A stretch of DNA of 63,706 nucleotides, filler included, from Neolecta irregularis DAH-3 (lineage: Eukaryota), in NCBI GenBank assembly GCA_001929475.1. It is 10 parts of 10 records of this genome, joined end to end, with 100 filler letters (N's around TTAATTAATTAA, not from the genome) between each part and the next. Parts side by side here need not be neighbours in the genome. Positions count along the whole stretch, not along the records: positions 17,387 to 33,390 come from LXFE01000193.1; positions 33,491 to 39,607 come from LXFE01002552.1; positions 39,708 to 50,023 come from LXFE01002558.1; positions 50,124 to 60,759 come from LXFE01002559.1; 6 more parts are not named here. One strand, 5' to 3'. How positions within the stretch are numbered: position 1 is the stretch's first letter; the number at the start of each line of letters is the position of its first letter. This document shows positions 17,991 to 59,468 of the stretch, one piece after another. The position numbers and the translations under genes were made by a program. The notes below the pieces were generated by a model. It did no database searches and was not told where the DNA came from. It was given only the letters and a program-made list of their open reading frames with translations.

Positions 17991-19652
17991 CTAATTCCTT
18001 GTAAAGAACTGTAATCGGCACCAGTCGTCTGGATATGTGGTGCAAAAGATCTTGATATCATCGCTGACTGCAGTTCTTTCGTGTTTCAAACTCATCAACA
18101 AGGTAGCCTTTCCAGCGCAAACCATAAGGTGCATAATGGCGTATTGTTGCCCAAGGCAGTAATGAGGACCTGTTCCAAAGACAAGAAAATTTTTGGGATG
18201 GTTTTCCGCGGTTCCGTTGGGTCCCCAGCGTTCCGGATTGAATGTATTGGGTTCAGGGTATGCGGTTGCGTCATGAAGGGAGTGCCAAAACGTTGGAATG
18301 ACCATTGTGCCTAAAATTTAGGACCGAATGAGCTAGGACAAATGCCTTTTGATACAATGTAGTCGGAAGTAACAGGAAATGCTTTTTTAGCTTTGTAGGG
18401 CACTAGGAGTTTAGCACGGTAAGAGGTGCAACTTACCCATGAGTACTGGGGGCCGCAAACGAAGGACTTCCTTCACCATCCATCTCGTATAATTCATCTT
18501 TTCAACCATGTCCATATCAACAGGTTTTGAAAGATCTCCATCTCGAACAGCAATCTGCTCTTGTCGAATTTTCTCAAAGACATCAGGACGATCGGCCAGG
18601 TACTGAAACATCCAAGTCATCGCAGAAGAAGTAGCATCCTGACTGGCGAACAAGAAACTCAAAAATGTCCCAGCAATTTCTTCATCCGAAAAATCACGAA
18701 TGCTAGGACCCTCTTGCGTCCCCTTCTGAGAAGCGATCATATCTTTGATCCATCGATCCATCATACAAGATGGCTCTTCGCCCTTGCCCATTTTTGATCG
18801 AGATAATTGGGCGGCTTGTTCGAATCGTTTGCAAACCTCTTTTCGAGCTTGGATTGCATACCAAACTTTTGAATACGGCAACACGATCGGGATGTTGACC
18901 AACTCTAGCGCAACTGTAATTTTCCAATAATTTTCTGAAATACGATCGATGGCTTCATCAGTGATGTAGCTTCCACAAAAGGTTCGCAGACTCGTTGCAA
19001 CATTGACATCTCTGAAATGGGTAGCGAAAGGTAGCGCTCCATCCTTGGAGATTTCAAGCCACTTCTTGAAGGCCTTATCATAAACCTGCTCTTGTTGATG
19101 GAGGTAAATTCCAAGAGCTTTCCGAGTGAACAACCCGTTTAATCCTTTGCGATAATCGACATGAGCCTTCCCGTCGAGAAAGACCCAGTTGGTAGGCTTT
19201 AAAATCTTTCGACCAGCGTCAACGACGCAGGGCTCAACAAAATGAGGGGAGTTTAGGATTTTGCGAGATAACTCGTTCGTTGACGCGAGTACAACAAACC
19301 TGCATCGGGTTATCACGCGTAAAGGATGGAGGTGATACTTGTGGAAAACGGATACACAACTCAGCGGGCCTGATTCCCATTTGGAGAGGTAACCGTTGAA
19401 TGTCGGGTTCAGCGAATCGAAGAAGGCGCCGATCAACGGGAAAGTCAATCTAGGACCTGGCAGGTTCTGCTTCTTTATTTGATAGCGGACTTTGTGTCAG
19501 CCAGGCTCGGGGGTAGAGATCTTACCCTGGTCCCAGACCAACACAACAAGCAATATCGTCAGTATGACGGTCCATGGATTGAGGTCGGCGGTGAACCGCC
19601 ATAGAAATGGGTGCCAGGGTGAGCTGGCAGTATACTGAGTAGCATTGGCCAT
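17991..19652 (-). CDS. ERG5: Cytochrome P450 CYP61, sterol C-22 desaturase
   Basis: [55 protein letters not shown], heme motif [10 protein letters not shown]. Confidence 0.96.
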
Positions 19653-21559
19653 GCCTTGAGCAATACTTGTGAGAACTGGAGCAGGGAGAAAAAACCCAGG
19701 CGGCAACTTAATCGTGCAGATGCAGAAACCCCTCATTCACCTGTTCGTAACTGGCGTGCATGGCGGCGAAAACCCGGCAAATCCGCGTGCAATCTTCGAC
19801 GGGAAGCGCCTTTCCGGGAATCCCGCGCCGCGGAACCCGACCCTGATCATCGCCTGATCTTGGTGTTTTGGCTTTGATCGTGGATTAAAAGCAACCAAAG
19901 CATAGAAATATCGAGCGCAGCAAGGCAGAAATAGCCAGACGCGCCACTGGACGAGCAATCACGCCAGATACCATTAAGGGCTGGCATGAATATTCTCCCG
20001 CTGCTATGATGCAATGAATCCACGAAGAATGCACACATTCCTTAGCGCTCTGATTAGCAGACACGGTGAGTGTGTTCCTTGTGTGACGGGATCATTGATT
20101 GCCGGTTGCCCAGCACATCAAACATTTGCCGAATTGAAGCTGGATAGTCTACATTGTCCTCGATTTTGATTATCTGCTGGGCAAAGGAAGAACGCATTTT
20201 TAGCATTCGTGGAAGGTACTCGAAAGCAGGAAAGGCAATTCGGAGGTTCTTCCTTTCTTGGTTGCTTAATGACTACACAATTTCGTCAAGGACAATGATC
20301 AAACTTTGCAGAACCACCACTTGTAACAATTATCAAAGTCATGCTATATTTAGATGGTTTCCCTCTGCTCAAATGTAGCCGAGAATGCCACTCTTAATAT
20401 GCCATGTTATCCCATCCATCAATGTAATACTGCTTCTTGCAGTACCTAAATACCCCATTTTTCTTTTGTCTGACTTGCGTTAATAAGGATTGCGCCATTA
20501 CAAGGCCGCTGAAGCCTAATACACTGTATTAAATGATGATTAATTTTGACAGAAGGGGCTTCAGCCACCCTTAACTGTTGTCGAGGCTTATCGCCTCCAT
20601 TGAGGCCCGTAAAACTTAATGAAATCCAGTCACAAGAATTCAGTTCTAGCTAAAAGGAAAATTCATGTCCAGAAGACATTCGAAATACTAGGATTTCGGA
20701 AGTGACCCTTCAACGCGATCCTTATCTAGATTAAAGAATATACCTTGGATCCATATTGGCCATGCTTTGCCGATTTAATAGACCTTTCATCCACATCTGA
20801 TATAAAATTTCCTTCTTTCTCGAAAAAAGCCACAAAGTAGTTATATTATGAAAAAGCAAACAGATGCTAATATGTACAAACAAGGTATTGATTCATTTTA
20901 CGTGGATCAGATTAAGTGGCCACAGATATAGACGATGAGAATAGTATTTTTGCGTTCGCCAGCCACCATGATATTTGGGTCAAACCTGGATATAACGAAT
21001 GTGGCTTGGCAGGGTTTCCAGCTTGAAGCACGCAGGGTGTAGCTAGTTTTAGGCGTTTATCGCATTAGGCGCCACACAAATTCCAACTTAATTTTATGAT
21101 ATTCGTCGAAATATCTCGAGAAAGAAATATGGATCCAATACTGATCTGGTAAGTGTGCATCCGCAGCCACCATTTACATCCAAATATAACAACATTACAT
21201 AGTTTTGGCAAATTTGAATTTGTCATTGTGTTCGATGGGTCCAGTGGTGTGTAGAATCAGCTGATACTGAATCCAGTGGTAGGATGGCTGGTGGGAGATT
21301 ACACTGGAAGAGAGAATGTTGCTGGAAACGAGTTTGTATGCTGCTGCTGCTGAAAGTGACAATCATGCAGTAAAATGCCTGTTGCAAATTATTTTGTATC
21401 ATTTCTTTGCAACCCCTCACAGGTTTAGTAGCATGTTGAATGGTTTTACTAGTTGTATCTTAGGTTAATGTACCCACTTATCACTGACTCTAGCAAATCA
21501 GAAGGAGGTGCGAGGTTGAGACAAACCCGACTTCACACCGTCACACGAGTCCATGAGCT

Positions 21560-21660
21560 GGGCCGGACCTCCAGAAAGCCCATGGGCTTTGGCCCATCCG
21601 CAACATTGCTGAGGAGCTAGCTTACAATGGGCCAGGCTTTGGCCCATCTGCAACACTGGT
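21560..21660. repeat. Dispersed repeat end (gggctttggcccatc..caacactg), possibly a hAT-like terminus; second copy about 50530-50582
   Basis: aaagccca(t/a)gggctttgg(c/t)ccatcc(g/c)caaca(t/c)tgc shared by both loci; the reverse complement starts CAGTGTTG. Confidence 0.5.
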
Positions 21661-21953
21661 TTATGGCCAAGCCTGCCTTCCATAGAACTTCTCCTTGGAC
21701 CTCATTTGTTGAGTGGGTGAGTATAACCCCCTCCCCCAAATCTATAGACACTATAGCAATAACCATTTACTCAAGGAGGGTATTCTTTTCCAGGAAACTT
21801 TTGTTGGAAAATGAGTGCAATAATATTTTATTAGTGCCCTTGTGGATCAATTGGTCAAATATTTAAAAGACAAGACATAAAAACATGAATTAATAGAACT
21901 TAAGTAAGAACTTAAGTATTCTTTTGCAAACAAACGGTTAAGTTACCCAAATT

Positions 21954-24130
21954 TCAAAGTGTAGTAGGAGATTCAAAAAGTGTTGACAAGGTATTTTCAA
22001 GCTGAGTCTTGTCGTATTTAATATACTAAAACATCAGAACAATTAGAGATTTCGCAACACTTTGGTCAAATTCTTTGTGAAATCGCTGGCTTGATATTTG
22101 TCATAGAATCGCAAATATAAGGGAACCACCATCTTCTTGACATCCGCAATAAGACTTGCACGAAGGCTGTCATCACTGATTACAAAAGCCCGATGAGATT
22201 TCATATTTTCCTCTAATTCCATGTTAAAATTCTGTATGGTGAGTTCGATCATCTGTCAGGGGTTTACCCTGAATTTATCCTTGATAGCTTCTTTCTCTTT
22301 GGTACCCATTGAATTTCGCACAGACCCGCCCAGGCCTCCCTTGACATATGTAACATCCATCAGATGCTCCGCACATGTTTTCCAGGAATCAAGGTAAAGA
22401 TTTGTGCTTTTCTTCTTCGCCACTTCCAGTTTTTGAAGTCCCTCGCCGAAAATCTTGGGGTCGAGCTCTGATATTCGAGTTATCATGTAATTTAAATTAT
22501 TCATACAAAAGATGCCAATAACAGATGGCTTTTTCGAACTCGCTTTGGCCTTTCCGTCCAATTGGCATGCTGCTAATTCACAGATGTCAGATATGAAATG
22601 CGCAAAGATAGCTGAAGCGTTTGCCCCAACATCAAATTTTGAAGAGGATTGGATCCCAGCCGATGTCCGATGCCATCCTCCGTCACCGAGTGAGATAAGC
22701 AGTGAACTAATGGCGTCTGGATAATCGGCGAGTCGACGAAGACGGGCGGTACACTAACATTCACAACATGGCCAGATGGCAGAATAACATACCTCTGTAG
22801 TAAGATCACATATCCCGCCGTCGGCGGGTAAGTTGACCATTGAAGCGACTCGTTTCTGGATGGCATCCAGTGTTCCAGAAAAAGTTGCAAGCGCTGTATG
22901 TCGAATACCCTTCAATGCTTCATCGAGTTCACTACCACCTGTATTTCTAATAATATCTCCACAAGGGCCATTGAGTAATGTGCCAACCTCGCCAACAACA
23001 TCGTATGCAAGAAATGAGTCAGTAAGCGGATGAGCAATTACGTATTGGTTCAGAATGGTCACAGTTTTGGCGAGCTCTACAACTGAAGGTCTCAAAGCGA
23101 CTTTCAATGGTTCATTGCGCTTCTCACCAAAGAAGTTAGATGCTATAGAAAGCTCAATCTTGAATGTTGGATAGAACGTTCAGATGTAACACATACCTTA
23201 ACCATTGCTGCAAACGCTTTCATATACATATAAATGCCATTGGCGCCCTTGTCATAGAAAGTATTACCAACTCGTTGAGCAGTGTTTACTGATGCTTGTG
23301 CGAGTGAGGTTAGCGACTGTTGAAGATATGCGCCCCGTTTGTCTGAGTAAATCTTGAGAATATTACTTGTAACTGGGACTTGATCGATCTCAAACTTGAA
23401 ATTACTGAGGAATTGCGAAAGAAGTCGTAGATCACCGATAGATTGGGCAGGTATCGTGGGAAATTCATTTTCTATGTTTCAGAATTCTTCTTCACACTTG
23501 AAAATATGCCTTTTGTGATATAGGCAAGCGGCTCAATACTAAACGAAACATCCATCAATAATACTGCGTAGGTCTCATCAAGAGTGGTCAATCCCTGTCT
23601 TAAAAGTTGTTGCTATTCGATCAGGAATAGACTGAAATCGCCATACAATGCTTGCAATCGCTCTGCTCGAACTTCGAAAGTTTGTTTTTTGAAGCTGCAC
23701 CAAAGCATAATGTAGCCGTTCAATCGAAGCCACAAATCCTTTAATATCGCCTTGAGTCCTGACATTCAGAGCAGAAATTCGACGTCCACTAACCCTCTTC
23801 TGAGTATCTCCTCCTCTACAGGGATGATATTAAAGTATTGCCTTGTCCGATCCACACAAGCAATGGTAGCATCGACATCTGTAGCATTAGACTCAGCTCT
23901 ATCGAAAACATGCTCTCTGAGACTGTGGATAAACTTTGCGTCGTCCGATAAATAGGCCGTATTGATTCCTCCAGTTTCCCCAATCTCGTATCAAACACCG
24001 TCAACATTGAACTCATTCGTTCCGTCAGAGAATTCGTATTTTTCAAATTTTCCATCAAAACCTCTAGCTCGGCTTTCTCCTCCTCTATATTAAATGCTAC
24101 CACTGCTTTAGATGGTCGCAGCATCGACAT
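21954..24130 (-). CDS. EXO70: Exocyst subunit Exo70, multi-exon
   Basis: N-terminal coiled coil (RLGKLEESIRPIY), LPADGGICDLT, IFCMNN, KEKEAIKDKF, FTKN-TKYIKYDK. Confidence 0.92.
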
Positions 24131-24429
24131 TGTTGTTGTGGGGTTGAATCGTGACGGCGGGGTTTACTAAGCTCAGTGGCGATGAAGCCTGTCGCGTAAA
24201 AACGGTACACATAGTATTTTCTGGTTATGGTTTTTCTATTATTATACGCTCCCTTGGTTTACTACTATGACGTGGCTCATACTTGTAAAACTATAAGTAG
24301 TCATGTAGCTGCCTTTTTGTAAGGCGTTGGATAATGCTCTATCTATCTACTCAGAATTGATGAAACGATTTCGCTTCATCTCCTCTAAGAATTGATTCTG
24401 ATATATATCAGAATCCCCCTGAAAAACTC

Positions 24430-25312
24430 TACGACCAGAATCTGCGCGACAAGCCGACACCCCCCGCAACCCCATACAATATAAATATATAATAACAGAT
24501 AAAAATAAAGGTTTTTCTCCACCATCATCTCTTCAAAATGGATAACCATGACAAAATGATTCAATCAGCTATTGAAGATCTCAAATCTGGAAGATTTACC
24601 TCTCAAAAAACCGTAGCAGCCACATATGGAATCCCACGGTCTACACTAATTGGGCGATTCCACGGCCAAGCAAATTGTCGAATTAGCCACCAAAATTACC
24701 AGCGATTAGCACCACCACAAGAGGAGTTTCTTGTTCAATGGATAATTGAACAACATAAGCAAGGATAACATTTCTCACATACCAGTATCAGAGAAATAGC
24801 AACAAGAATTTTATTATTTTAGTGATGAATGGAGACAATATTCCCCTTGGAAGTAAATGAGTTTCCAAGTTTATTCAACAAAATCCACAAATATCTTCCT
24901 GTATTGGTAGGCCTATATTTCCACCTTTCTTCAAGGCAGAACTGATTTTCCAAGTATACTCCAGAACAGGTCAATCAAGTAGTTTCTTTAGCTCAGGCAA
25001 ATTTTCTGATGGCGAAGAGAGAGTTAAAAGGCTGATTTGAGCAAATTATGAACAGAAAAAGAACACTGCTGCTCTAATGGGGTGGAAAAGCACTCCATTG
25101 AGAGATAAGTTGGCAGAGTTTTCAGAAGCCAAATTTGAAACAATATTCCATAGAGTGCACTTTATCACCATGTCCCTTTTATCCACCCTGCCAAACTGCC
25201 CAACAGCCCACCAGAACACTCCAGGCAGGTGGTTCAGATCTCTTTGGGGTGGGCGGCTTGGAAATCTGCCCAACAGCCTGTCGGCGGGCGGTAGTTACCT
25301 GTTGCTAGCGTA
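24430..25312 (+). mobile_element. Degenerate, internally deleted pogo/Fot1-type DNA transposon
   Basis: HTH_psq (AATYGIPRSTL) and CENP-B HTH (QRLAPPQEEFLVQWI...IREIA...PLGSK*VSKFIQQNP) with stops and frameshift; no DDE domain. Boundaries approximate. Confidence 0.8.
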
Positions 25313-25369
25313 AAACGCTCACGTGCATGATTGTCAATTATTTCATGATGCTTCTATAACCGCACAGCC

Positions 25370-33390: not shown

Positions 33391-33494
33391 NNNNNNNNNN
33401 NNNNNNNNNNNNNNNNNNNNNNNNNNNNNNNNNNTTAATTAATTAANNNNNNNNNNNNNNNNNNNNNNNNNNNNNNNNNNNNNNNNNNNNACAT

Positions 33495-35028: not shown

Positions 35029-36227
35029 ATGAAGTTCATCTGCACGATTACGATATTCTTGGTTGTTGCTTCCGCCAAGATCTTGGGTTTCAATCTCGGT
35101 CAGGGTAAACCAGACGGAAGCTGCAAGACGTTAGAAGATTACGTGACGGATTTCAATGCTATAGACGAACAGTACAGGGTATATTCAACGACTTTTCACT
35201 TTTCTTCTGAGATTATGTCGTTTTCCAATAATCCCAATAATCGGAATTCTCTTAGACATAATTTCCCTCAGATTCTGCTAATTTCCTCAACATCATTAAA
35301 TTTTCTCTTACTACTTATTCTCTATCGGCGAGGGTACTTATTCTTTAGGTTATAAAGTCGTTTGGGATATTTGATCCTTGTCAGGGCAACAGCTTGTCTT
35401 TACTACTCGACGCTGCAAAGAAAACCAAAGGAAAGGTTTTGGTCGGAGTATGGGGAGATACCTCAATTTTCGATAAGGAGAAGACTGCATTAATGGACAT
35501 TCTTGGTCAGCCCGGTGTGGAAGATCATATTGTCGGTGTTGTTGTTTGTTCAGAGTGCTTGTATAGAACTCAATTCAAAGGCGATAATGAAATCACCCCC
35601 GCGGTGCTTGCTGTATGAATGATTTGGACTGCGTTCTGATTTTTTAGGCCAGAATTTCAGAAGTGAAAAACATGGTAAAGAATTTCCAATCTAAGGGCAT
35701 CTCAAATATACCGGTCGGCTGTGCAGATACAGTATGTCTTACACAAGTTCGCGAGGTTTTAAAATATTGTAGTGGAACGTCCTCGTAGACCCTCAAAACG
35801 TTGCCGTTCTCAAAGTAGTGGACACGATCTTTGTTAATTGTTTCCCTTGTATGTGTCCTCATTCACATTTTCTAATTTCGCAGATTGGGAAGGGCTTGGC
35901 ATTGGAAGTGCACCTGCCACCTTCTTTGATGCTATAGAACAAGTCAAAAATAGCCTACACGCAGTCAATCCATCTGCTAGCATTGCTGTGGGAGAAACTG
36001 GTTGGCCAACTGAAGGAAAACCGTTTGGTTCCAGTGTTCCCAGTCTAGAAAATTCCCGTGCATTTTGGGTCAATGTCTTTTGTAAGCTTCGTGGGATGGG
36101 GATGGATGCATATTGGTTTGAAGCTTTTGATGAACCAATGAAGGTGAATACTCAGAATATGGGCGTCGAGTCACATTGGGGTACCTACGATACCGATGGA
36201 AAGAAGAAGTTTGAATTGACTTGCTAA
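35029..36227 (+). CDS. GH17 beta-1,3-glucanase/glucanosyltransferase (Bgl2-like), copy 1
   Basis: Signal peptide, GFNLG..KPDGSCK, SECLYR (acid/base Glu), VGETGWPT (nucleophile), FEAFDEP, ESHWG. Confidence 0.9.
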
Positions 36228-37078: not shown

Positions 37079-38344
37079 ATGAAGTTCTACGCCCCTATTG
37101 CAACATTTCTGCCAATCGCCTTTGCTGAAATCATGGGCTTCAATGTTGGGCAGCAGAAGCCTGATGGCACCTGTAAATCTGCAGACGACTATGCAGCGGA
37201 TTTCAATAGGATATATGGACCGGACAAGGTATAGCCGACACTCTTCCTCCATATCTATAGTTTTAAATGAATCATTCTACTTCGAACTCTTCGATTCGTA
37301 GAGGTTCCGAAGACTTATATTTAGTCTATATCCAGTATGGTTCTACTCGTAGGCTTCATCCGTTACAAAATATCACTATTCTTGCATAAACCTATGTCTT
37401 TTACTTCGTTTTATTTTATTATCCTTCTCCTTTCTCCTAGTTTTAACTGTCAAGGTCTTCAAAATCTTTTCTCCAACAGATTCTTGTGGCCAAAATTCCT
37501 TATTTCCGCTCCTCGATGCAGCAAAGCAAGCCGATGGAAAGGTTTTAGTAGGGCTATGGGCAGTTGGATCCGGTTTCGATGCTGAAAAAAGGGCACTGTG
37601 GGATGCAGTGCAGGTATTTGGTGGAGAGAGAATTGTCGGCGTTGTCGTCGGTTCAGAATCTCTTTACCGAAGTCAGTTCCAGGGCACAAATGAAATCACA
37701 CCCCAAGAGCTTGCGGTAAGTGTTTTTGATCTTTTAAACTTAAATTGTAGAATAGGATTTACGATGTCAAAGGTATGATCCAAGGTGATAAGTCTTCTGG
37801 AGGTCTCGGATTACCGCATATACCTGTCGGTACCGCCGATACTGTATTTTCCCTCTGTTATTTACGAGCTCATAAATTGTAGTGGAACGCTCTCGTCGAC
37901 GGTCGCAATACCGTAGTTCTTCAAGCACTCAATACAGTTTGGGTAAACGCTTTCCCATGTATGCTTTCATGGACTGCAACTGATTCTAATTCAATAGACT
38001 GGCAAGGGTATGCCATTGAAAACGGACCACAAGCCCTCTTTGACGCGATAAATAGCGTCAAAAGTGCCTTATCGGCACCCAATCCATCTGCTAGCATTGC
38101 TGTGGGAGAAACTGGTTGGCCAACTGAAGGTAAACCGTTTGGTTCCAGTGTTCCCAGTCTAGAAAATTCCCGTGCATTTTGGGTCAATGCCTTTTGTAAG
38201 CTTCGTGGGATGGGGATGGATGCATATTGGTTTGAGGCTTTTGATGAACCACAAAAGACCGATACTACTCACAATACCGGAGTGGAGAAGTATTGGGGAG
38301 TCTATGATTCCAATCGTCAAACCAAATTTGATATATCCTGTTGA
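37079..38344 (+). CDS. GH17 beta-1,3-glucanase/glucanosyltransferase (Bgl2-like), copy 2
   Basis: Same exon layout as copy 1; VGSESLYR, GETGWPT, FEAFDEP, EKYWGVYD. Confidence 0.9.
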
Positions 38345-39502: not shown

Positions 39503-39707
39503 CGTTGTCGACGAAATACCTCTTGGGTGTTTCGCTGAACTAGGTTATGTGAAGTTAACCAAACTTACTGAACCTGGTATGTTTTTTGCAGAACTCAAAT
39601 TTCCTAANNNNNNNNNNNNNNNNNNNNNNNNNNNNNNNNNNNNNNNNNNNNTTAATTAATTAANNNNNNNNNNNNNNNNNNNNNNNNNNNNNNNNNNNNN
39701 NNNNNNN

Positions 39708-45615: not shown

Positions 45616-45700
45616 AGGCAAAGCTAGCTTGATACTCGAAATTCTTTTTTAAAAAACAACTATCGAATACTACGAAAACACTGAAACACCGAAAGTAAAC

Positions 45701-46648
45701 ATGACACGACGACCAGAAAAAAGAACAGAAGCAGGTGGTGACCTGCAGAAGATTTCAGACCGAATACAGTCGGTGGAGATCACAGACAGACAGCAGACCA
45801 CGGAATATGGTGCAGAACCAAAACGACATGAAATCAGGGTACAGCACAGGGAACAGGAACCAACACAGTCAGCCATCCATGGAACAGAACTTGAGATAAC
45901 AGGCAGACTCGATCACGGGGAGAGAAACAGACAGGCAGTACCCCGGAATCAGGAACACAGACACTCCACTGAGCAAGTATTGCCAAGCCCACACCCTCAG
46001 AGAAGAATATTCCCCCACTTACCAATGCCCAAAATGTTTACCGGGCGAGGGGACCCAATCGCGTTGATCATATGGTTTAGCGACTTGGATGACTATTTTA
46101 TATTAACACAGTTCGACAGATCTAAGGGACGAGACCTTCTGTTTGCAGGGCTTCTCCTGCAAGGAGGCCCTAAGAGCTGGTGGAATTCGCGAAGGTGTCA
46201 TATCCTCACATGGGACCAATTTACAACCGAACTGATGCATGAATATATCCCACCCAAAGCACAATTGCTGGATGAGTGGAATCACCTTCATCAAGGAAGA
46301 CGAGAATTGTCAGCGTTTGTAAGAGACTTGCGGAGATATCAATTATTATTGCCAAAAATTAACGACTTCGCTGCAGAAATAAAACTCTGGGATGGAATGA
46401 ACCCTACAGTTCGAGCTCAAGCACAACTAGCGATACCCGATAATGCAACATTCACGCAAATTGTAAGAATGGCTGTGGAATTCGATTATCTACTCAGACT
46501 GAGAAAAACTCAGGCCTTGAGCAAACGCCAAGAGGCAAGTAGGGAATCACACCGATTCTCTGAGCCTGGTCAAGCAAGTGGATCAGGAGTACAGAGAAGA
46601 ATACGCAGCGGAAGCAATCGAGCATACAGGCTCCAGCAGGAAGGCTAA
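45701..46648 (+). CDS. Retrotransposon Gag (capsid) protein
   Basis: PKMFTG...W...DYF...LLQGGPKSWW...TWDQFTTEL...LHQG..ELSAFVRD...GMNP pattern of Ty3/gypsy gag. Confidence 0.85.
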   Translation: MTRRPEKRTEAGGDLQKISDRIQSVEITDRQQTTEYGAEPKRHEIRVQHREQEPTQSAIHGTELEITGRLDHGERNRQAVPRNQEHRHSTEQVLPSPHPQRRIFPHLPMPKMFTGRGDPIALIIWFSDLDDYFILTQFDRSKGRDLLFAGLLLQGGPKSWWNSRRCHILTWDQFTTELMHEYIPPKAQLLDEWNHLHQGRRELSAFVRDLRRYQLLLPKINDFAAEIKLWDGMNPTVRAQAQLAIPDNATFTQIVRMAVEFDYLLRLRKTQALSKRQEASRESHRFSEPGQASGSGVQRRIRSGSNRAYRLQQEG

Positions 46649-47336: not shown

Positions 47337-48016
47337 TTAGGAACTACGAATGAGTCCCTTTGTCTCGAGATATGTTATGATTATCCTAACGCACTCCTCG
47401 ACATTCTTCTCGCCAGTTTTGATTGTGATTTCGGGGTTCGAAGGTGGTTCATATGGGGCTGTGATACCAGTGAAGTCTTGCTTTTAGTCATGAACCCTGA
47501 ATATACAGTACCCTTTATTTCTCCCGCTCTTGCTTTTTGATATAACCCTTTTGGGTCACGCTGTTCCACAATTTCAAGGGGCGCATCTACGAAGACCTAG
47601 AATCTTAAAACTAGCGTACGCAGAAATATTGCCTCAACGAACTTTAATCCCCATTCCGCATGTATATTTCTGGCAAGTTGGCGATCTTTTTCATAAGGAC
47701 TAATAAAGCTGGTTAACACGATTTGTCCGCTATCCGCCATCAGCCGGCTGACATGGCCTATTCGTCTAATATTTTCTTCTCGGTCATGTTCAGAGAAACC
47801 GAGGTCAGAATTTAACCCAAATCGAATGTTATCGCCATCTAATCTGTATGAAGGAATATGAGAATGAAGAAGTGTTGATTCTAGAGCCACTGCAATCGTT
47901 GATTTACCACTAGCAGAAAGCCCTGTCAACCAAATCGTTAAACCGGTGTTATTGAGAAGAGAAAATCGATCTTCGCGGGAGAGATGGGAAGGATGGAATG
48001 TGATGTGGGTGGGCAT
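47337..48016 (-). CDS. MET14: Adenylylsulfate (APS) kinase
   Basis: [15 protein letters not shown]-loop, [38 protein letters not shown]. Confidence 0.96.
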
Positions 48017-49423: not shown

Positions 49424-49644
49424 GAGGTACATTTTGGGGTCGCCATTGGAGTTTGTAATGACCTTTTCAAACCCTGTATCGGAAATAAGGGGCTGTACTT
49501 TTTGCTTTATCTAGAGTCAACTAGCTAACTTGTTCAGGTTTTGTGTAGGGTTACTTAAGACATGAATAAGTGAGTTTAAATAGTACTATATAATGACAAA
49601 TATTACTCTTCATCTTCCGGTTTTACTGCAAGCCCATCTTCATA

Positions 49645-50023: not shown

Positions 50024-50123
50024 NNNNNNNNNNNNNNNNNNNNNNNNNNNNNNNNNNNNNNNNNNNNTTAATTAATTAANNNNNNNNNNNNNNNNNNNNN
50101 NNNNNNNNNNNNNNNNNNNNNNN

Positions 50124-50296
50124 AAATTTCGGTACGAACCGACATCGGAAATTATGTTAAATAAAGCTTCTTGAGAATATCTGCCATAAGGATGAGTAAA
50201 CCCGGAAATTTAGTTAGATTGTACGCAAAGTCTCTGGATGCAGATATCCTTATGGGCTCATTCGATGCAGGGAGAGTGAAAAATTGGCGGTGTCTT
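50124..50296 (+). repeat. 173-bp duplicate of 59923-60095 (COQ10 5' part), probably an assembly or haplotype artefact
   Basis: Two mismatches only; bounded by N gaps on both sides. Confidence 0.85.
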
Positions 50297-51040
50297 NNNN
50301 NNNNNNTGGCAATACCATACCAAATAGATATAGAGGCTTGGAAGAGATTGTATATAAAGACGGCTGTTAGACTTACCTAGCCAAGTATGTTTACTTAGGC
50401 TAGGTATGTCCCTTTTGTAAAAGTACGTTTACTTAGGCTAGTTATATCACTTGGTCTTATCGTACTTCTAAGCATGTAGCTTACAACAGCCCATACCCAA
50501 TACTGCCCACACAGACCCTCAAAAAGCACATGGGCCAGACTTTTTTTAAAGCCCAAGGGCTTTGGTCCATCCCCAACACTGCATATTATGCCAATTCTGC
50601 CATCCTAACTCTTCCCAATAATCAAATGTGCTTATTGATGAGTTGACATTGGAACTGTGTGGTGATGATGTCATACTACAAAGTATTAGGTGAAAATCCT
50701 CAGTTTAGCATTTCTTTATGACAAACCTTTGTTTTAATGTAGATACAATCATTTATGCATATCAACATGGTTCATGCTTACATTTCATGTCATTGTCTAT
50801 ATCTAACTATAACTTGTCCTAATCCACTGACCTGACGCTACTCATGCTATTTTAGCGTACAAAAATCAACTGACTAGACGTTTGCCTGAACGATCCGCTA
50901 ATATTTACATGCAGACTTCGTCCACGCTCCCTAATTTAGTCGTTCTTCGCCGGCTCTAATCTTGGTGATCACACTTTAACCCCTCCCTTTGCCCGTACTC
51001 GTAACTTCGTTTATTCTTTTCGTTGAACAGAAAAATCTCC

Positions 51041-54000
51041 ATGGCTGGACTTGCGGATTTCTTCTTCGTGGTTGGACTCGGCGAAGAGAACATTGATTTT
51101 TCCCCCTTTTCTGAAAACCTAACTCTATCGAATTGTTCTTCAGGCAAAGAACTCAATAGAAACCCCACTATATCGGCTGAATCGAAATCCCAATCTGCTA
51201 CTGAACCCCCATCCGCATACCAAAAGTCCCGACAGATTTCCAGCATAAAAGACAATTTAAACCATGGCGATCAGAAGGATCTTGCGGTGCCAACTCCTCA
51301 ACTTATGGTTCTCAACCGCGAACATTTAAAACCTCATCTCAAATTTGGCGCACAAACAACCTTTGAGGATGCGCTCACAAGCTTTATGTCCAATCGCGAT
51401 AGTTTTTTGAGCGCTTTGGAACCCCCAGCTGCTTCAGGTCGACGGATTGAAGAAGTAGAGGGCAATGATCAGGTGTCTCCAATAAGATCCAAAAGCTCTA
51501 TTCGGAAGCGCTCGTATCTGGGTCGCGCAACCTCTCTGAACCGCAATAGTACGATCCGGGGTTCATCGGTCTCGAGAAGCAGTACAATCCGGAAACGAGG
51601 TACTCGTATCAATTGATTAGTGGACCTGAATATTCCCAGATTCGATTCGAGAATTAAAACGCATTTCAAGCTATAATGCTGTCACTCCAGCTCCAGAACC
51701 GTTGATACTTCCTCCCGGAACCCATCCTCTTAAAAGGAAATTCGCGCCTGCCCTCTTGAGTCGATGGCCATCTGGAGATCAAGAAGCCTTTTACAGCCCG
51801 CGCGAATCATTTCCAGATTACGTGCCCATGGTTAATTTATCCTTGATTAAGTTGACCATAGTTTGTTTTTCCCGATGATATTCAAATTAAGTTGGCTGAC
51901 TCGAGACCCCGTTCGACTTGGCACTCATTCGTATGAACTCGGCCTAAAACTTGTATTAAATTAAATGCAGACATTAACAGATGAAAAGGGCGACAGGATT
52001 CATGGCACTTGCGTCATAATATGGATACCGCTTGGAGTGTCTAAAGCCGAAGAGTTGGAATACAGGTGCTCCCAATGTAGACAAGATTTTCTGCCATTAA
52101 TACTGACGTCCAGGGCGTCAGGCACACATGGTATGATCGTCATACCTCTTGCTCTCATCCACTCCCAGTCTCACGAAGAAAGAGAGATGGCCGAGAGTTT
52201 TACGTCGAAGTTGGCGGCTGAACGCACTAATCTGTCGGCTCTGTTGACAAAATTGCCCTCTACTGAGGCGGAATCACAAGAACGCGAAGACCTCGAAGAT
52301 CTCATCTCTCAGTGCGAGGAAAGAATCAACTTATTTAGTGAACTACTTGGTCCAATCAGGATTGGCGCCTGTGCAAAGGTTGAAGGGTTAACTGAAGGGA
52401 GTGAAGGCGTATGGATTCCTCGAGCTTATGGACTGCTTGGTCGCGAAGGAAGCCTGCAGACCCTCTGGCGTGAGTATCTTCGAGCATTATGTGCGCCTAT
52501 GCTCCATGGAGAGATCTCGAGAATCCCTTTCTTACAGAGCATCGGTCAGTGTTTACCAATCGAACGCTTTGTGGTCAATATTCTGGGGGAAATATCATCT
52601 CCTACTCCTGGTACTCAAATTGAAATAATTGTCAGAGACCTGAAGTAACTTTCGACCGTAAGAATAATTACTAAACCAAGATTGTACGCCACAAAAAACA
52701 GTATCAACGAATATCCGGATTGGCGAGATGTATATTGTTTCCGTCTATGTGAATCTTACTGGTACAGGTTGATATTTATCCAATTTTTCGAGCTCTTTCG
52801 ATCAAAAGCATTGTAACACTATTTGAGGTACATCATAGGCATCAATCCTTCCCTCATTGTCCTAGAGTGCTTTAGCAGAGGCGCGAATCATTTTCCTATC
52901 AACTTTTCCCGCGATGTTACATGCAGCAGCCCGTACATTAGTGCACTTACTTTATCCACTGGTATAATATTACTCCTAAGCCCCTACTAATTTATAGATA
53001 TGGCGTGGTGTCTATATTCCGGGTAAGCGTTGCATATTCTTAATTCTTTGCTTACAATCATTGCAGTTCTTCCCTCACGTTTGCTTTCATGCCTGGAGGT
53101 AAGCATGTGAAATTCGTATATATTCTAAGTTCAAGGCGCCTTGTAGCTACATTATTGGCATTGACCGACGATATACTCGATTCGAACCTCCAGAAGAAGA
53201 CTTCGTTCTGTGTGACTTAGACTCTGATTCAGTCATCTGTTCGCAAGCACCCCCATCACTTCCGCCTTCTATTAAAGGTAAGTTGACTCATCTTCTAAAC
53301 CTTGGGGCGCCGCTGCACATTCAATGTGGAGTTCCAACAGGCCCTCCAGCATACATCCGAGAGACATATCCGACTGATACTTTTTGGGGTGACCGATCAG
53401 TGATATCGAAGCACCGAGAGGACAGCCTTGTAGGTAAACTTGTTGCAACGAATTCCTCGACTTACCATGACTTTTCGGGCTTATCTCATTGTCCGCCTAT
53501 ATTCAATGCTTATACTTGCGTTAAAGAAGAAGCCTCATTGAGTTCCCGTCCTGGGACATCGGCGCGCAATAATTCATCTCCTCTATATCGTCTAGCTCCC
53601 TTGACTTCAGTATCGAATGGAAATTTTAGCATTTCGAACTTTCCATCTGCTTCGCGGAATTTTAGTACGTCAAACCTTTGTGATACGCAAAGTCGCAACC
53701 GAAGCTTCTCAGTGAGTCATTCTAGATTTTGCTGTTCTTATCAGTCCAGTTAAACCGGAGAAATTCAAATATATCTCGACGGCATACACCTGTAAAATCT
53801 ATAGGCTCAGTGAGTGACAAGGCATCCACATTCCATTATGCGCCAACAATCTCCGGACAGTCGATCAGTTTTGCACCATCAACCATATTCAATTTCGACT
53901 CATTTGCTTCCGCACAACCAGTTGCTGAGGAAACAGAGATCACAAAGCTTCGCGAAGGCCATTGTCTCCGTATGAAACATGGAGATCTCGAATTTTTCTC

Positions 54001-54801
54001 CAGGACGTGTGACTACTGCGATGATATGTGTGAAGATGGAATGTTTGAGTGCCAAGGTCTCGCTCCCCTTTGTCCTAGATTGATAAACTAGATTGCTCAC
54101 TTCTTGTACATGGCCGTTGTCTCGAACACATTTATCTTCCCTGTACCGGTTCGTTTTCCCCGGATCATATTCGCGTGGCATTTCTTCGTACTTTTGCGAC
54201 TCTCTTTAGAAACTATCGCAGATGTCTTGACCCAGTACCACCCGCTTGCCCCAAATCCAAGGATGATCCGATCTATACCTTTCGCACCGAAGCGTTTCTG
54301 AGATCAAATTCTTCTTCAAAAGAGAACAATGATTATCTTTCCATGTTGATGCAAACTCAAGGTAGATGAGTAGATTCCAAAAGCTAATAATATAGCTTTC
54401 AGTGAATTCATTCACGATCGTTGTCGGAAGCCACCCGATGAATCCGAGATCCTCTTTTTTGACGAAGTTATTGCAGCTAAGAAGAATCGAGAAAAGCTCA
54501 GTCTCTTTGCAAAATCAGGTTTCTTTACCTTGGTTGAACTAAGCTAAATGTACAAGAAATAAAGTTTTTGTCCAATCTCAAATTAGGTCGGGTCTCCAAG
54601 ACTGTACGTGCAATACCGCCCAATCGCGAGAATTATGAGATATCGCCAAATCATATTGGAAGAATTCCACAGATTTTGACCCCACATTTTGCATTGCCTC
54701 CTCGAACATCAGCAACAAAGGCAACCGAAGGTTGTGCTAACCGGGTCAAGCGGAAGGCAGTCCTGAGTGTCTTCTCACCGACATTGACAACCCTAAAGTA
54801 G
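51041..54801 (+). CDS. DENN-domain protein (Rab GEF family) with C1-like Cys region, many exons
   Basis: LADFFFVVG, FPDYVPMFVFP, LTDEKGDRIHGTC, WIPRAYG, VLPSRLLSCLEAPCSYIIG, CDYCDDMC...CQ, AFLRTFATLFRNYR, QAFSEFI. Confidence 0.9.
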
Positions 54802-54945
54802 TTTCTTATCTCTTTCATCATTTGCATTATTTTATTAGACAGGAAGGATTATTCGGCGCATGTGCTGCAGGAAGAAATATAAGATATCTTATCTAGAATG
54901 TACATAACTAGAACGCTGGCATCATTACGCCCCTAATCACAAGAA

Positions 54946-55884
54946 TCAAATATTAAATTTTTGAGGAAACTTGAGCTCCATCCATTGAATGTACCGCTTA
55001 TGTAGAGAAACCTCCTTGTCCGTTTTGTTTTTCAGACACTCTATTAGTGATAGTATTTGGCCTGTATCACAATTTTTACAGGCGGAAACTGCTTGAACAA
55101 AAACCCAGAAGCTTTCATGGGTCGAGGCTACTCTGATTGTACTCTCTACGATGGATCCGATATGGTGGAAAGCATCACGCCATGCCCATATATTGACGTG
55201 TACCAAATGGCAGATCAACCATGATAAAAATGTCCACGCCGATACATCGCTGACGTGACTTGCGGCATACTTTTCATTTTTGCCAACAAGTTCTTCCCAC
55301 ATAGTTGAGTTTCCGTCGCTAATGATATTTGATATGATAATTCTTGCGTGAGACCAGGCGTAATAGTTCTTTGGATGTTGCTCAGCAGCTGCGAATACGA
55401 TAGAGAATTCTGAGGATAAGCCTGGCCTGTGATTTGCAACTTTGAACAACCATCTTCTATAGTGCCATAGAGCAGAGGACTTTGTATGCCGATACAATGG
55501 AGATGACAGTAAAAGCTTGGACAAATCCATCTCAAACTGCAGATTTGCAGAATTCTGTAAAGCCCATTGACGACTGCACGATGAGTTTCTGGATAGTTCT
55601 TGTAGGGCCTTCTACCGAGCATTCAGGGCAGTAGTATGCTCACAATTGTAGAGAAGAATAACGAGAGCCATTTCCGCTGCAGCCTCCTTGCAACGGTTAT
55701 CGAAGAAGCGAGCGCGAGAATAGATGTATGCAGACACAAGATCTCTGTTGGCGATAGCAACATGACCGTCTGAGAGCAAAACAGTCACGTTTGGGTCGAT
55801 GCGTGCCTGTAAAACTTCGAAAGACCCATCTGGACATGAAGAAGCTGTGCAGATGGATGCGATCAATGACGAGCATATTTCCAT
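54946..55884 (-). CDS. Protein prenyltransferase alpha-subunit repeat protein (PTAR1/Ecm9-like)
   Basis: PPTA repeats EHTTALNAR, TKSSALWHYRRW, HPKNYYAWSHAR, HVSDVSAWTF. Confidence 0.85.
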
Positions 55885-55982
55885 CGTCTGATGATATGTG
55901 AGACGTTGGTGCTATATAACCACTGCAGGTGGTGATGCAGGCCAGGTGTAACAACTGCACTTTTACGTTGCAACTTTGGCCG

Positions 55983-56670
55983 ATGCAACCTGTCTTGGCA
56001 GCCCTCGTGCTTTCGCTTTTTTTCCGGCTTTTATCTATTATTGGCTCTATCAAAATTGCTTCGCTGGTTTATCTCTGGAGCCTGTCTGCGTATTTATGGT
56101 GTTAGCTCTGGACTCTATATTCTTCATTCACCCACTCTGGGAAAGTCACAGCTTTCAGAGCATTGCAGCGCTGTGTCCTTCAGACTAAAAAGGATCTCGC
56201 AAACACGAGTGCACAAGACGAATTCGCAAGATGGGCAAAACTTCGAAGAAGATATGACAAAGAGGAGGCTCAACTAGAAGAGCTTGGTGCGAAGCCCTCT
56301 AGCTTGCACGTACTTACCCGAGGTTCCGAAATCAATTCCTCTCGTATAGCCTTTGAGCTGAAGTGCAAAACTTCGATCTGGATGATTACCAAAGGGATTG
56401 CATTGCTTGCTGTCTGGTGGTATCGTTCAGCTTCGGTTTTCTGGCTTCCTGCCGGGTGGTTTCCTTTCTGGATTGAATGGTGGTTGTCATTCCCATTTGC
56501 ACCTAGAGGTATGGGCAGAGTGGGAAAAGTGTTCACAGGAAGGATCTGTCAGCTTTGGAATGTGGATCTTAATCCTGGATCGTGTCGTTAAACGGATAAC
56601 TTTGACTTTACAGACAATGGCAACGGCAATTATATTGTATAGAGAAACGACCCGAGCTCCAGTGAGATGA
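55983..56670 (+). CDS. GET1: GET complex insertase Get1/WRB
   Basis: N-terminal TM, TSAQDEFARWAKLRR.YDK, VFWLPAGWFP..IEW.LSFP.AP.GSVS. Confidence 0.93.
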
Positions 56671-56676
56671 CGCCCC

Positions 56677-57508
56677 CTACTTTGCTGCAACCTTTTTCAT
56701 TTTCCTTGCAGCTTTTGATTTCAATGGTATCATTTGCTGTTTATCAGCTTTTGTCTTTCCAAAATCGTAATCTATTCCTGCATCATTTAGGGCGGCCAGC
56801 TTTTTCTCCAGTCTGTTTGACGCCCGCCTAGAAACCTTGACCCACTGGTCTGCGGTTTTGGGAGCGTCGTGTGTATGACGTGAAATATTAGCCCATGGAA
56901 GAGGCTTGAATTTTTTCAATGAGCCTTTAAATAGGTCTGGGTGGACCTGGTCGGAGGGGATGAGTTTGCATTTGAGAATATGGCTTGAGAGGAGGTAATT
57001 ATTCATGGTTTCTGCTACGATGTTGGCAACGGCTTCTGATTCGAATTCTATAAAGGCGTAATGCTTGGACTTGCCGGTCTATGGTTAGTCGAGGGAAGAA
57101 GGACAGCGTTGATGCCTTTTTGTTTCTTGAGAGGCGCAGACGTCTGACGTCGCCAAACTGCGCAAAGTAGGACTTCATTTCGTCCTCGTAGAATCCGTGC
57201 GGGATGCGGCCGAGATAGACGATTCCGGACTGCAGCGCACTGGCACTCAACGCAGCAACCTTTGTCCGCAGTGTAGCTTCGTCTGCAGGCGCAAGAGCAA
57301 ATTGTCGATGGTCATTGGCACTTTTGCTGTTGTTGTTGCTGCTGTCGTTGTCGCTGTTGCTTCTGTCGTTATCGCTGGAATCAAAGCCTGTGAGAAATGC
57401 GGACGCTGTTTTCTGCTCGTCGCTGCTGCTGCTGCTGCCGCGAGTCTTCTTCTTATGTAGCGGCTGTGTCTGGTCTGCGGCTGTGCTTTTGCGCTTTGGT
57501 GCTGCCAT
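56677..57508 (-). CDS. NOP15: Nucleolar RRM protein Nop15/NIFK
   Basis: [41 protein letters not shown]. Confidence 0.95.
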
Positions 57509-57598
57509 GGGCACGGCGAACACCAACACCGAAAACTTTTCGGTGGAGCGCACGTGACCGCCAGGCTATCGCGCCTCTCCTCCGCGCAAGGCGCAGCA

Positions 57599-59468
57599 AT
57601 GCCCCGGCCCGGCGACCAGCACTGCCCGCCAAATCGCATTGCCGGCGACCAGCAAGGCCCGCCAAATCGCATTTCCGGTAACCAGCAATGCCCGTATACA
57701 AATCCCTTTCACGCATCGCCAGACCCCATCCACGCGTGGACCGCCCAGGAAATCGCGACGCTCCAGGCACGACTCGATAAGCAGCTCGGCCCAGAGTATG
57801 TGTCCTCCAGAGCAGGAGCCGGCGGCGCAAAGGTCCAGTATCTCGAGGCGTGGAAGTGCATAAACATTGCAAACGACGTTTTTGGCTTCAATGGCTGGTC
57901 GTCGAGCATCCAGAACGTCCACGTCGACTTTGTGGGTCGCTGTGCAAGCCTGCGTTGACATCCAGATGGACGAAGCTGCGGGCCGCTTCAGCCTGGGTCT
58001 TTCCGTCGTCGTCCGCGTCACCCTGAAAGACGGCACATACCACGAGGCATCCTCTTCTTCACAGTCGTTACTCATCTCAGGATGTCGGGTACGGCTCCAT
58101 CGAAAATTGCAAAGGGAAGGCTGCCGCTTTCGAAAAGGCAACTCTCCCCCCTTGCATCTGCTGATTTCTAGGCCAAGAAAGAAGGAACGACCGATGCCCT
58201 CAAACGCGCATTGCGCACCTTTGGAAATGTCCTCGGCAACTGTCTTTATGACAAAGCATTCTGCAAAGAGATCTCAAAGGTCAAACCCGCAAATGTGCAT
58301 TGGTCTTCTAATGAGCACCATCTTGACACAGTAGCCGAGGTTTGATGCTCATGATCTCTATCAACGGCCCGAATACCCCTGCATTCCCGCTCTGCCCACA
58401 TCTTTGCTCCTGCCCGATATGTCATCAAATGAGGACGTGGATCAGCACAAATCGGTGACCGAGTCTATACCAGTTCAACCATCTATCCAAGTTGAAAGGA
58501 AACCCTCAATTTCTGCGCAATCCGCAGACACCACATTTGAGCAGTTCGGAGGTATATCCACTCTCAGTGCAACCCTCTCAGCATTTAGATGACGATTTCG
58601 ATAATATGGATTTCTTCGAGGACAAACCTGTACTCCCGGAAAGTCCACGCCTCGGAGAGTTTGAGACTGACAAGTGAGCCTCTGGTCTACATCAGTTATT
58701 AGACTAACGTTAATCCAGTCGACCAACACCAGAACCACAACTTCCCCCCACTTATTCTCACGAACACAGGACCCCAATCCAACAATGCCATATGCAACCC
58801 AGGCCGGTTCGTCCACCCAACAAAGCTCAGCAAAAACCACCAATACAGCAGATACAGATGCGGATACCCTTGAAACCACCCAATGGATCTGTTGCTGTTA
58901 CGACTGCTGATTCCGGTTCCAGTTTTTATCGCGTGTATAATAACCATTCTGGTAGTGCAAATCATTCTCAAAATGGCTCTACCTCCAGCGCAAGTGCGAC
59001 TGCACACAACAAAACCCTTGCTCAAAAGTCAACCCCAAGCCCGGATTCGCTCCCCGAGCACGATCCCACTATGGCACAGGTTAGCAATCTTCCACCAGGG
59101 ACGTTTTTCAGTGCAAGAGCTGCCCTGACGGACACCGCCCAACCAATTTCAGCGTTCAATCCTACCTTTGACAGCCCTTCGATGCGGCGCACCTCTGGAG
59201 TTGACCCAAAAAAGTCAACACCTATTGTGCGCAAGAGTGGTATTGGAATGCCTCCTCCTCCACCTGGCGGTGCTCCAGCAACCCCAGGACTCCCTCGTTA
59301 TAGAAACACACTGGTTAACAATGGCAAGAGGAACTCTGCGGGACTGCTTGTAGATAATCGGTATAATCCCTTTATTCCCTGTACTTATCCAGCGGTCCAC
59401 TAGGGGAGATCTCGGCGCAGGCTATCAATCAACCCGAAATGAATGATGCAAAAAAGCTGCGTACTTGA
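57599..59468 (+). CDS. RAD52: DNA repair and recombination protein Rad52/Rad22
   Basis: [75 protein letters not shown]. Confidence 0.96.

Follow-up and report, generated by a model that had tools for sequence, protein, structure and literature searches.

Frequent GC-AG introns with non-consensus donors in a 63.7-kb window of Neolecta irregularis

U2-type introns with GC and AG ends are known from fungi, animals and plants, where the GC donor carries a stronger consensus, a near-perfect GCAAGT. Other lineages depart from GT at +2 in a sizeable share of their introns; these are animals or protists, and in the GA-AG case the donor sits between an exonic AG, which is conserved, and an A further downstream. 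The ultra-short introns of ciliates and nucleomorphs fall into a very narrow length range and keep GT-AG almost strictly. The mean share of GC-AG introns over 130 fungal annotations is 1.009% (Table 1 of PMC7072748), and for the GA-AG introns that article proposes a variant U1 snRNA isoform.

The introns described here come from Neolecta irregularis, and their frequency was measured solely in one 63.7-kb window, the whole stretch of DNA analysed, with about 30 genes. The window is nuclear DNA of this species, with 100% identity to a protein of N. irregularis DAH-3. Like ordinary U2-type GC-AG introns, they have GC and AG ends, are very probably removed from mRNA and belong to the length class of their GT-AG neighbours, and a branch-like motif may be a further likeness. 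They differ in their donors: GCAAGT occurs in none of seven, a G at +5 in one, and the compensation is solely an exonic AG. They also differ in frequency, making up about 7-15% of the introns in the window, roughly one in ten, against the approximately 1% expected from the fungal mean of 1.009% (Table 1 of PMC7072748). A sizeable share is likewise found in the other lineages that depart from GT at +2, and the exonic AG and downstream A flank the Neolecta donor as in the GA-AG case; whereas those systems are animals or protists, Neolecta is an intron-rich ascomycete with a GC donor. Its range of 31-45 nt recalls the narrow lengths in ciliates and nucleomorphs and suggests that the intron is recognised as a unit, although +2 is relaxed in Neolecta and not in those genomes. 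The main text of the genome paper contains neither 'intron' nor 'splice' (its supplement may hold intron statistics), and we found no mention in the literature on Neolecta introns or splicing or on GC-AG introns in Taphrinomycotina. GC-AG introns themselves are already known; for frequent GC-AG introns without GCAAGT in Neolecta we found no printed mention.

The original prediction named seven introns beginning with GC, none of them with GCAAGT and six preceded by an exonic AG. All seven stretches are present at the coordinates given below, with GC as the first and AG as the last two bases and a length of 34-38 nt. Their donors are GCATTT, GCATAT, GCATGT, GCAATA, GCATCA, GCATCC and GCAACT, and an exonic AG precedes all except EXO70 23879-23913, which follows GA; on all three points the prediction holds. 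If the intron ends are displaced by a base or two, they are, by eye, no longer GY..AG, so the GC..AG placement is unique for the same mRNA. Colinearity with homologues or Pfam profiles supports removal of every one, and the introns of NOP15 and RAD52 are in addition missing, with exact boundaries, from contigs of run X2. These contigs are spliced over 10.4 kb, although no RNA run was listed for the window; the X2 record carries no statement that the run is RNA, and its automatic class is 'DNA?'. The X2 support for these three joints is indirect and comes from where contig pieces end, how long the contig is and how deeply each bin is covered, and the uncovered bases per bin (37, 34, 107, 47 and 39 nt) equal the prediction in each bin. 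The four introns in ERG5, EXO70 and MET14 are predicted from homology alone. Together, our results make it very probable that the seven are genuine spliceosomal GC-AG introns of the major type, with weak donor information and short length.

The window contains seven, perhaps eight, GC-AG introns among about 90-100 introns (93-105 by prediction, from a gene finder that over-predicts). An earlier rough estimate of 70-80 introns is probably a little low. In the 10,453 bases with spliced X2 contigs, three GC introns, by our reading, fall among 29 joints (about 28-30 introns); the 15 of these 29 joints that are listed are all GT-AG, one of them appearing as CT..AC, the minus-strand form of GT-AG. 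At 1.009%, the binomial probability is 7.5e-5 for at least 7 GC-AG introns of 100 and 6.3e-7 for 7 of 49 (rate from Table 1 of PMC7072748), in agreement with the claim that the share within the window lies far above 1%. It could be argued that the introns are real and the high share reflects local fluctuation or selection of the window, with a genome-wide rate of about 1-3%. The sample of 63.7 kb and about 30 genes is indeed small, windows get a second look for seeming oddity, and the largest gene, with 15 introns, has no GC-AG intron. However, both binomial probabilities speak against this explanation, as does the distribution of the seven over 40 kb and five unrelated genes, with a probable eighth in a sixth gene, and we consider it improbable.

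Another explanation is that nearby GT donors are truly used, as in the public protein models, and that the GC versions are an artefact of forced protein colinearity. Each of the four introns in ERG5 (29 nt), EXO70 (26 and 56 nt) and MET14 (33 nt) does offer an in-frame GT..AG alternative of the length given, public models P0121 and P0276 adopt three of these, and our own GC candidate at 53032-53066 turned out to be GT in the X2 contig. However, the residues that the alternatives add or delete find no support among the homologues. In ERG5/CYP61, the 35-nt intron 18311-18345 (minus strand, GCATTT) lies between ...YIVSKG and TMVIPTFW, and the protein runs across the junction from Pfam p450 position 339 through about 21 amino acids to position 361. 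The only in-frame GT alternative, with its donor 6 nt downstream, adds two residues that are absent in 93 of 93 full-length homologues (26 of 119, shorter than 480 aa, were left out).

In EXO70, the 38-nt intron 23472-23509 (minus strand, GCATAT) joins ...EPLAYITK to ENEFPTIP; the 26-nt GT intron of the public model retains GIFS here, four residues found in none of 29 aligned homologues. The 35-nt intron 23879-23913 (minus strand, GCATGT) joins ...TTQSLSTVSE to NVDATI, and the 7 columns deleted by the public 56-nt GT intron are filled in 29 of 30 homologues, the thirtieth beginning within the compared segment. A Pfam search with the N-terminal EXO70 exons did not match Exo70_N. In MET14 (APS kinase), the 36-nt intron 47597-47632 (minus strand, GCAATA), which is in frame and ends in TAG, joins ...KFVE to VFVDAPLE, with Pfam APS_kinase position 104 directly continuing at 105. 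Residue by residue, the VFVD of the GC model is found in most of 100 homologues (V 98, F/Y 90, V/I 93, D 94; 19 of 119, shorter than 190 aa, were left out). The 33-nt GT alternative, which uses a different acceptor, gives AIFLH in P0276, one residue too many relative to 98 of 100 homologues, and replaces the D conserved in 94. Moreover, the 26- and 29-nt alternatives are shorter than the minimum of 31 nt among 42 supported introns.

For NOP15 and both RAD52 introns there is no frame-keeping GT alternative, and the introns are gone from the X2 contig. The 37-nt NOP15 intron 57079-57115 (minus strand, GCATCA) lies inside the RRM and joins ...RNKK to TGKSKH; the exons around it cover RRM_1 positions 1-33, plus two residues, and then 35-68. 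A piece of the X2 contig ends exactly at 57116, and the bin 56938-57286 is short by about 37 nt. In RAD52, two 34-nt introns on the plus strand follow each other. The first, 58047-58080 (GCATCC), comes after ...DGTYHE and has no GT in a usable position, and the second, 58138-58171 (GCAACT), has no GT anywhere within. The last residue before 58047 corresponds to yeast Rad52 residue 104, human residue 122 and Pfam Rad52_Rad22 position 90, and the exon after 58171 resumes the alignment at residue 124 of the yeast and residue 142 of the human protein. In both the yeast and the human structure, the gap between the flanking exons is thus 19 aa, exactly the 57-nt middle exon 58081-58137. Over the RAD52 region 57932-58718, the X2 contig is 224 nt below genome length, equal to the sum of six predicted introns, and the bin 57985-58333 is short by 107 nt, that is, 34 + 34 + 39. 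The use of nearby GT donors is therefore highly unlikely.

There is next to no probability that the C at +2 is really a T, altered by faulty sequencing or assembly. We found nothing in support of it, and seven errors all falling at intron +2 are not credible. A DNA contig of run X1 (9,701 nt, placed at 50695-60398) agrees with the window at the donor Cs 57114, 58048 and 58139, its differences being confined to 56902, 57224, 59061 and a gap of 3 nt at 58985; the public MET14 protein has A (GCA) and not V (GTA) at the donor codon, so its underlying assembly also has C. Minor-spliceosome (U12-type) introns, with the consensus donor RTATCCTT and branch site TCCTTAAC, can likewise be dismissed almost entirely, as the ATC after the first two bases of GCATCC and GCATCA is a faint likeness, but ATCCTT occurs in no donor, a TCCTTAAC-like branch site in none of the seven introns, and the branch-like motifs CTAAT, CTGAT, CTAAC and TTGAC of the GC introns occur in GT introns as well. 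Ascomycota are reported to lack the minor spliceosome.

For the donor statistics, the seven GC introns were compared with 42 GT introns backed by evidence other than the gene finder. The GT donors are themselves weak, as had been proposed: +3 is A in 29 of 42, +5 is G in 19 and +6 is T in 19, and the donors GTCTCG, GTTTCT, GTTAAT and GTACTC are all seen spliced out in X2 contigs. Among these are the 35-nt intron 54057-54091 (plus strand, GTCTCG) of a DENN-domain gene and the 38-nt intron 54519-54556 (plus strand, GTTTCT), two GT-AG introns with very weak donors that the X2 contig skips. A further weak-donor GT-AG intron, ERG5 19300-19338 (minus strand, 39 nt, GTATCA), is in frame and stop-free; its 13 residues are absent in homologues, yet the public model P0001 retains them. 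The mean number of matches to CAG|GTAAGT is 5.14 of 9 for GT and 4.71 of 9 for GC donors. The tie between exonic AG and GC donors is also confirmed (6/7 GC versus 12/42 GT, Fisher p = 0.007), and so is the narrow bounding of intron length, the 42 GT introns spanning 31-45 nt with a median of 36. Strict YTRAY, scored as a sequence motif only, is present in 4 of 8 GC introns and in 21 of the 42 GT introns, its usual distance from the 3' end being 5-9 nt, and introns without it show looser forms such as TTACTCA, CTGAAA or TTTAAG. These results demonstrate that the information in the 5' splice site is here largely limited to G+1, a pyrimidine in the second position and, in most introns, an A in the third, and that C at +2 is compensated on the exon side and not within the intron.

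It is tempting to speculate on how such donors could be recognised; the original prediction put this down to a putative change in U1, U6, U5 or Prp8. Recognition would probably proceed via a few base pairs near the junction, at -2, -1, +1 and +3, with the branch site 5-9 nt before the 3' AG as a second element and a fixed short distance between the intron ends, that is, intron definition, as a third. Under such recognition, a T-to-C change at +2 of an old intron would carry only a small penalty, and such an intron would therefore be retained and not eliminated. In its strongest form, this would mean that the Neolecta spliceosome is blind to +2, the donor being only AG|GYA within a 31-45-nt ruler, and that GC-AG introns make up 5-15% genome-wide, a proposal that we hold to be doubtful. 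One route to such blindness would be a U1 snRNA base opposite +2 that pairs with both C and U, such as G, and a changed U6 or Prp8 would be an alternative. An Rfam scan of the window at gathering scores gave no match, thus no snRNA in the window, and a tRNA scan of the window found none. If +2 is indeed unread, the GC-AG share would be the highest known for an intron-rich fungus. Neolecta offers a natural case of relaxation at a base whose conservation within the 5' splice site is second only to that of G+1, in a relative of the fission-yeast model, in which the spliceosome's need at +2 becomes testable.

Gene finders restricted to GT produce wrong protein models at GC-AG sites, and the public models contain errors at each of the four introns compared (ERG5, EXO70 twice and MET14). 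P0001 reads through the ERG5 intron and ends after 423 aa, against about 525-540 aa in relatives, and P0121 lacks 7 residues at one EXO70 site and has 4 extra at the other. Surveys that trust annotation, on splice sites or on intron gain and loss (e.g. PMC8476143), would therefore miss such introns. Two other fungal models are altered at the MET14 site: P0292 has a 13-residue insertion, and P0290 stops there. This suggests an old intron position.

Counts of joined ORFs were similar for all donor dinucleotides, and a first gene finder was overfitted or noisy. The final gene finder predicts 82 GT and 23 GC introns, including five of the seven described above, but it over-predicts and has poor specificity for non-GT donors, about 8 of the 23 GC predictions being refuted. 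Under a loose penalty, it called 9-28 introns with decoy dinucleotides and 19 with GC, which stood out solely by its score gain (20-54 versus 80); with a strict penalty, the counts were 1-4 versus 5 and the gains 3-15 versus 30. The X2 contig replaces the candidate 53032-53066 by a GT intron from 53023, 9 nt upstream, and contradicts 57428-57460 and 59324-59353. The ERG5 alignment contradicts 18009-18043, and 19859-19892 falls outside this gene, upstream of its start; 23923-23957 and 23759-23841 conflict with the EXO70 models and alignment, and the Las1 profile runs across 10938-10967. For the candidate 10506-10538, the true intron is probably of the GT type and begins 2 nt further upstream, a tentative reading based on the eIF4E motif. 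Further GC predictions, at 3132, 9204, 15737, 28082, 44126, 46535, 62002 and 63265, are candidates only.

A probable eighth GC-AG intron, absent from the earlier list and one of the 23 GC predictions, lies in a sixth gene, that for mitochondrial ribosomal protein L53/YmL44, at 63577-63616 (plus strand, 40 nt, GCATGT). An in-frame GT alternative is also present there, with a length of merely 28 nt. A PDB search with the second exon gave no match. Residues 1-22 of chain 6ywe_h are matched by the first exon (63506-63574), whereas the second (63618-63704), which is read in a different frame, corresponds to positions 14-41 of Pfam MRP_L53 (E = 0.011).

According to the original prediction, GC-AG introns interrupt ERG5 (18311-18345, minus strand), EXO70 (23472-23509 and 23879-23913, both minus), MET14 (47597-47632, minus), NOP15 (57079-57115, minus) and RAD52 (58047-58080 and 58138-58171, both plus). 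A sequence check shows these coordinates to be correct, and all seven stretches start with GC, end with AG and are 34-38 nt long. As had been claimed, none carries GCAAGT: the donors read GCATTT, GCATAT, GCATGT, GCAATA, GCATCA, GCATCC and GCAACT, with A at +3 in 7/7, T at +4 in 5/7 and G at +5 in 1/7. Exonic AG precedes six of the seven donors, likewise as predicted, and GA precedes the seventh; AAAAG lies directly 5' of four of them.

The proteins encoded across these junctions were compared with their homologues. In RAD52, the exon upstream of the first GC intron extends to residue 104 of yeast Rad52 (8g3g_J) and residue 122 of human RAD52 (1h2i_A), and the one downstream of the second begins at residues 124 and 142, respectively. 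Thus, 19 residues are left between the flanking exons in both proteins, which the 57-nt middle exon fits exactly; the Pfam coordinates are concordant (90, then 19 aa, then 110). The APS_kinase profile is continuous from position 104 to 105 over the MET14 junction, where the gene model with the GC-AG intron removed (GC model) reads VFVD, and among 100 full-length homologues (19 shorter ones excluded) these columns hold V in 98, F or Y in 90, V or I in 93 and D in 94. In NOP15, RRM_1 positions 1-33 plus two residues are followed across the junction by positions 35-68, and in ERG5 two relatives align gap-free over the SKG-TMVIP junction.

One alternative is that nearby in-frame GT..AG pairs are spliced instead. 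In ERG5, the only such pair adds two residues that are found in 0 of 93 full-length homologues (26 shorter ones excluded). For EXO70, 30 homologues spanning the N-terminal part, picked from 150 returned, were aligned together with the GC and public models. At 23879-23913, the seven columns removed by the GT alternative are all occupied in 29 of the 30, and at 23472-23509 the four residues that it retains occur in none of 29 aligned homologues. These alignments argue for the GC donors.

The MET14 position may have a longer history. One MET14 homologue model of fungal or metagenomic origin (P0292) has a 13-residue insertion exactly at the GC-AG intron position, and another (P0290) ends there. 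This comparison of protein models suggests that the intron position is shared, and mis-modelled, in other species; the insertion and the truncation fit an old position rather than a new gain. Beside MET14, the open frame 45701-46534 (plus strand) has retrotransposon gag and Ty3 capsid-like Pfam matches and is probably a retroelement remnant.

Contigs from two sequencing runs, X1 and X2, whose library type was guessed as DNA for both, were aligned to 50307-60759. X1 gives a single colinear contig of 9,701 nt. The X2 contigs skip 29 short genomic segments in this region, and X2 thus behaves as spliced RNA. Among the 15 of 29 joints listed, 14 are GT..AG and one is CT..AC, a minus-strand GT-AG. 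A 17-nt micro-exon (52114-52130, plus strand), with 37- and 38-nt introns on either side, is spanned by one of the 14; the contig retains the exon's letters within one 90-nt skip. The listed joints verify 15 GT-AG introns within the DENN-domain gene (51041-54801), which holds the micro-exon, and one in the next gene.

The GC junctions of NOP15 and RAD52 lie outside the 15 of 29 joints listed and were assessed from X2 piece ends, length arithmetic and bin depths. One X2 contig aligns in two pieces, 57116-57931 (record 2131-2946) and 58719-59359 (record 930-1567), between which lie 787 nt of genome and 563 nt of contig. The difference of 224 nt equals the summed length of the six predicted RAD52 introns, both GC-AG introns included (34 + 34 + 34 + 40 + 37 + 45). 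The first piece stops precisely at 57116, the final NOP15 exon base before the GC donor. With this contig at 108.9-fold depth, bins averaging 97.4, 98.3, 75.5, 94.3 and 96.8 translate into 37, 34, 107, 47 and 39 uncovered bases, and the predicted intron content of the same bins is identical (the last comprising 36 intronic bases and a gap of 3 nt). A misread T at the donor C positions is contradicted by the X1 DNA contig, which agrees with the window at all three such positions it covers (one in NOP15, two in RAD52). X1 differs from the window at single bases (56902, 57224 and 59061) and by a 3-nt gap at 58985; since X2 shares two of these four differences, they apparently reflect allelic variation or different individuals. 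NOP15 (56680-57565, minus) and RAD52 (57461 onward, plus) are divergent with overlapping 5' parts, and a single X2 contig covers both, spliced for introns of both strands.

To estimate frequency, a gene finder was self-trained on this window, GT and GC being equally allowed. It returned 105 introns (82 GT and 23 GC), mostly 29-45 nt, and was weak in specificity for non-GT donors: decoy dinucleotides yielded 9-28 introns under loose and 1-4 under strict settings, versus 19 and 5 for GC, and score gain alone set GC apart from them. About 8 of the 23 GC predictions were refuted, and the GT predictions checkable in 50307-60759 were all correct. We therefore restricted the count to supported introns. 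Among the rejected candidates, a GC intron at 53032-53066 gives way to a 44-nt GT intron from 53023 at an X2 joint. In the eIF4E gene (10144-10344, plus strand), a predicted 111-nt intron masks a genuine exon that encodes the eIF4E-like GGCWNFRLPK stretch; the actual intron there seems to span 36 nt (10144-10179), and the final intron of this gene is probably GT (10504-10538), not GC.

Beyond the gene finder, 42 GT-AG introns are supported: 16 by listed X2 joints, five in RAD52 by contig arithmetic, three in ERG5 by homologues, six in EXO70 by the public model (two of these also by Pfam continuity), nine by Pfam coordinates (six in an aldehyde dehydrogenase gene and one each in MET14, Las1 and a HAD hydrolase), and three in eIF4E by weaker support. 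GC-AG thus makes up 7 of 49 supported introns, in a sample skewed to genes examined for their GC introns. For the whole window, we count seven, perhaps eight, among roughly 90-100 introns, the probable eighth being 63577-63616 in a gene for mitochondrial ribosomal protein L53; over the 10.4 kb that has spliced contigs, GC-AG accounts for 3 of about 28-30. The mean over 130 fungal annotations in Table 1 of PMC7072748 is 1.009%, a rate at which at least 7 in 100 has P = 7.5e-5, in line with the predicted unusual frequency.

The GT donors are also weak, as had been proposed: introns starting with GTCTCG, GTTTCT, GTTAAT and GTACTC are absent from the X2 contigs. The 42 GT donors comprise 32 distinct hexamers, with G at -1 in 28, A at +3 in 29, and T at +4, G at +5 and T at +6 in 19 each. 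Mean matches to CAG/GTAAGT are 5.14/9 for GT and 4.71/9 for GC donors. GT introns span 31-45 nt (median 36, n = 42), and a strict YTRAY, mostly 5-9 nt before the 3' end, occurs in half of the GC and half of the GT introns. The sole clear difference is exonic AG before the donor, present in 6/7 GC versus 12/42 GT donors among supported introns (Fisher p = 0.007). First introns of the tandem Frag1/DRAM/Sfk1 paralogues (13032-13775 and 15019-15783, plus strand) are near-identical (GTAGTT..., 33 nt) and at the same position, and the last introns of the adjoining glycosyl hydrolase family 17 genes (35493-36227 and 37079-38344, plus strand) are alike in position and sequence.

Together, our results show that these GC-AG introns are genuine as well as frequent and non-consensus, and that the donor signal of Neolecta irregularis is weak in general. 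In the probable mechanism, little information is demanded at the donor and the intron ends are kept about 36 nt from each other. Changing T to C at +2 would then cost little if -2 and -1 are AG, and GC-AG introns would accumulate because of it.

At each of the four GC-AG introns compared, the public protein model is wrong. The ERG5 model (P0001) runs into the GC-AG intron and terminates at 423 aa; it also translates an in-frame, stop-free 39-nt GT-AG intron (GTATCA; 19300-19338, minus strand) as 13 extra residues. The EXO70 model (P0121) has 56-nt and 26-nt GT introns in place of the GC-AG introns, and the MET14 model (P0276) uses a different GT..AG pair, giving AIFLH instead of VFVD. This pattern is the expected output of a GT-only gene finder, and annotation-based surveys are thus blind to these introns. 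Our literature searches found nothing on Neolecta splice sites: 'intron', 'splice', 'RNA-seq' and 'GC-AG' are all absent from the main text of the genome paper (PMC5309816), PMC8476143 names Neolecta once, as a genome source, and in PMC13263728 'splice' is present only within a reference.

The largest exon of ERG5 matches 'Cytochrome P450 61 [Neolecta irregularis DAH-3]' at 100% identity, with Saitoella, Schizosaccharomyces, Protomyces and Taphrina as the closest relatives. Genes are densely packed in the window, at a GC content of 41-49%; scans of it turned up neither tRNAs nor Rfam matches at gathering scores. At nine places (4818-4917, 6681-6780, 9478-9577, 12666-12765, 17287-17386, 33391-33490, 39608-39707, 50024-50123 and 60760-60859), two blocks of 44 N stand with 12 bases between them; their appearance suggests masking, not assembly gaps, and both the run search and the contig alignment avoided them. 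Two 10-N runs lie at 50297-50306 and 63109-63118.
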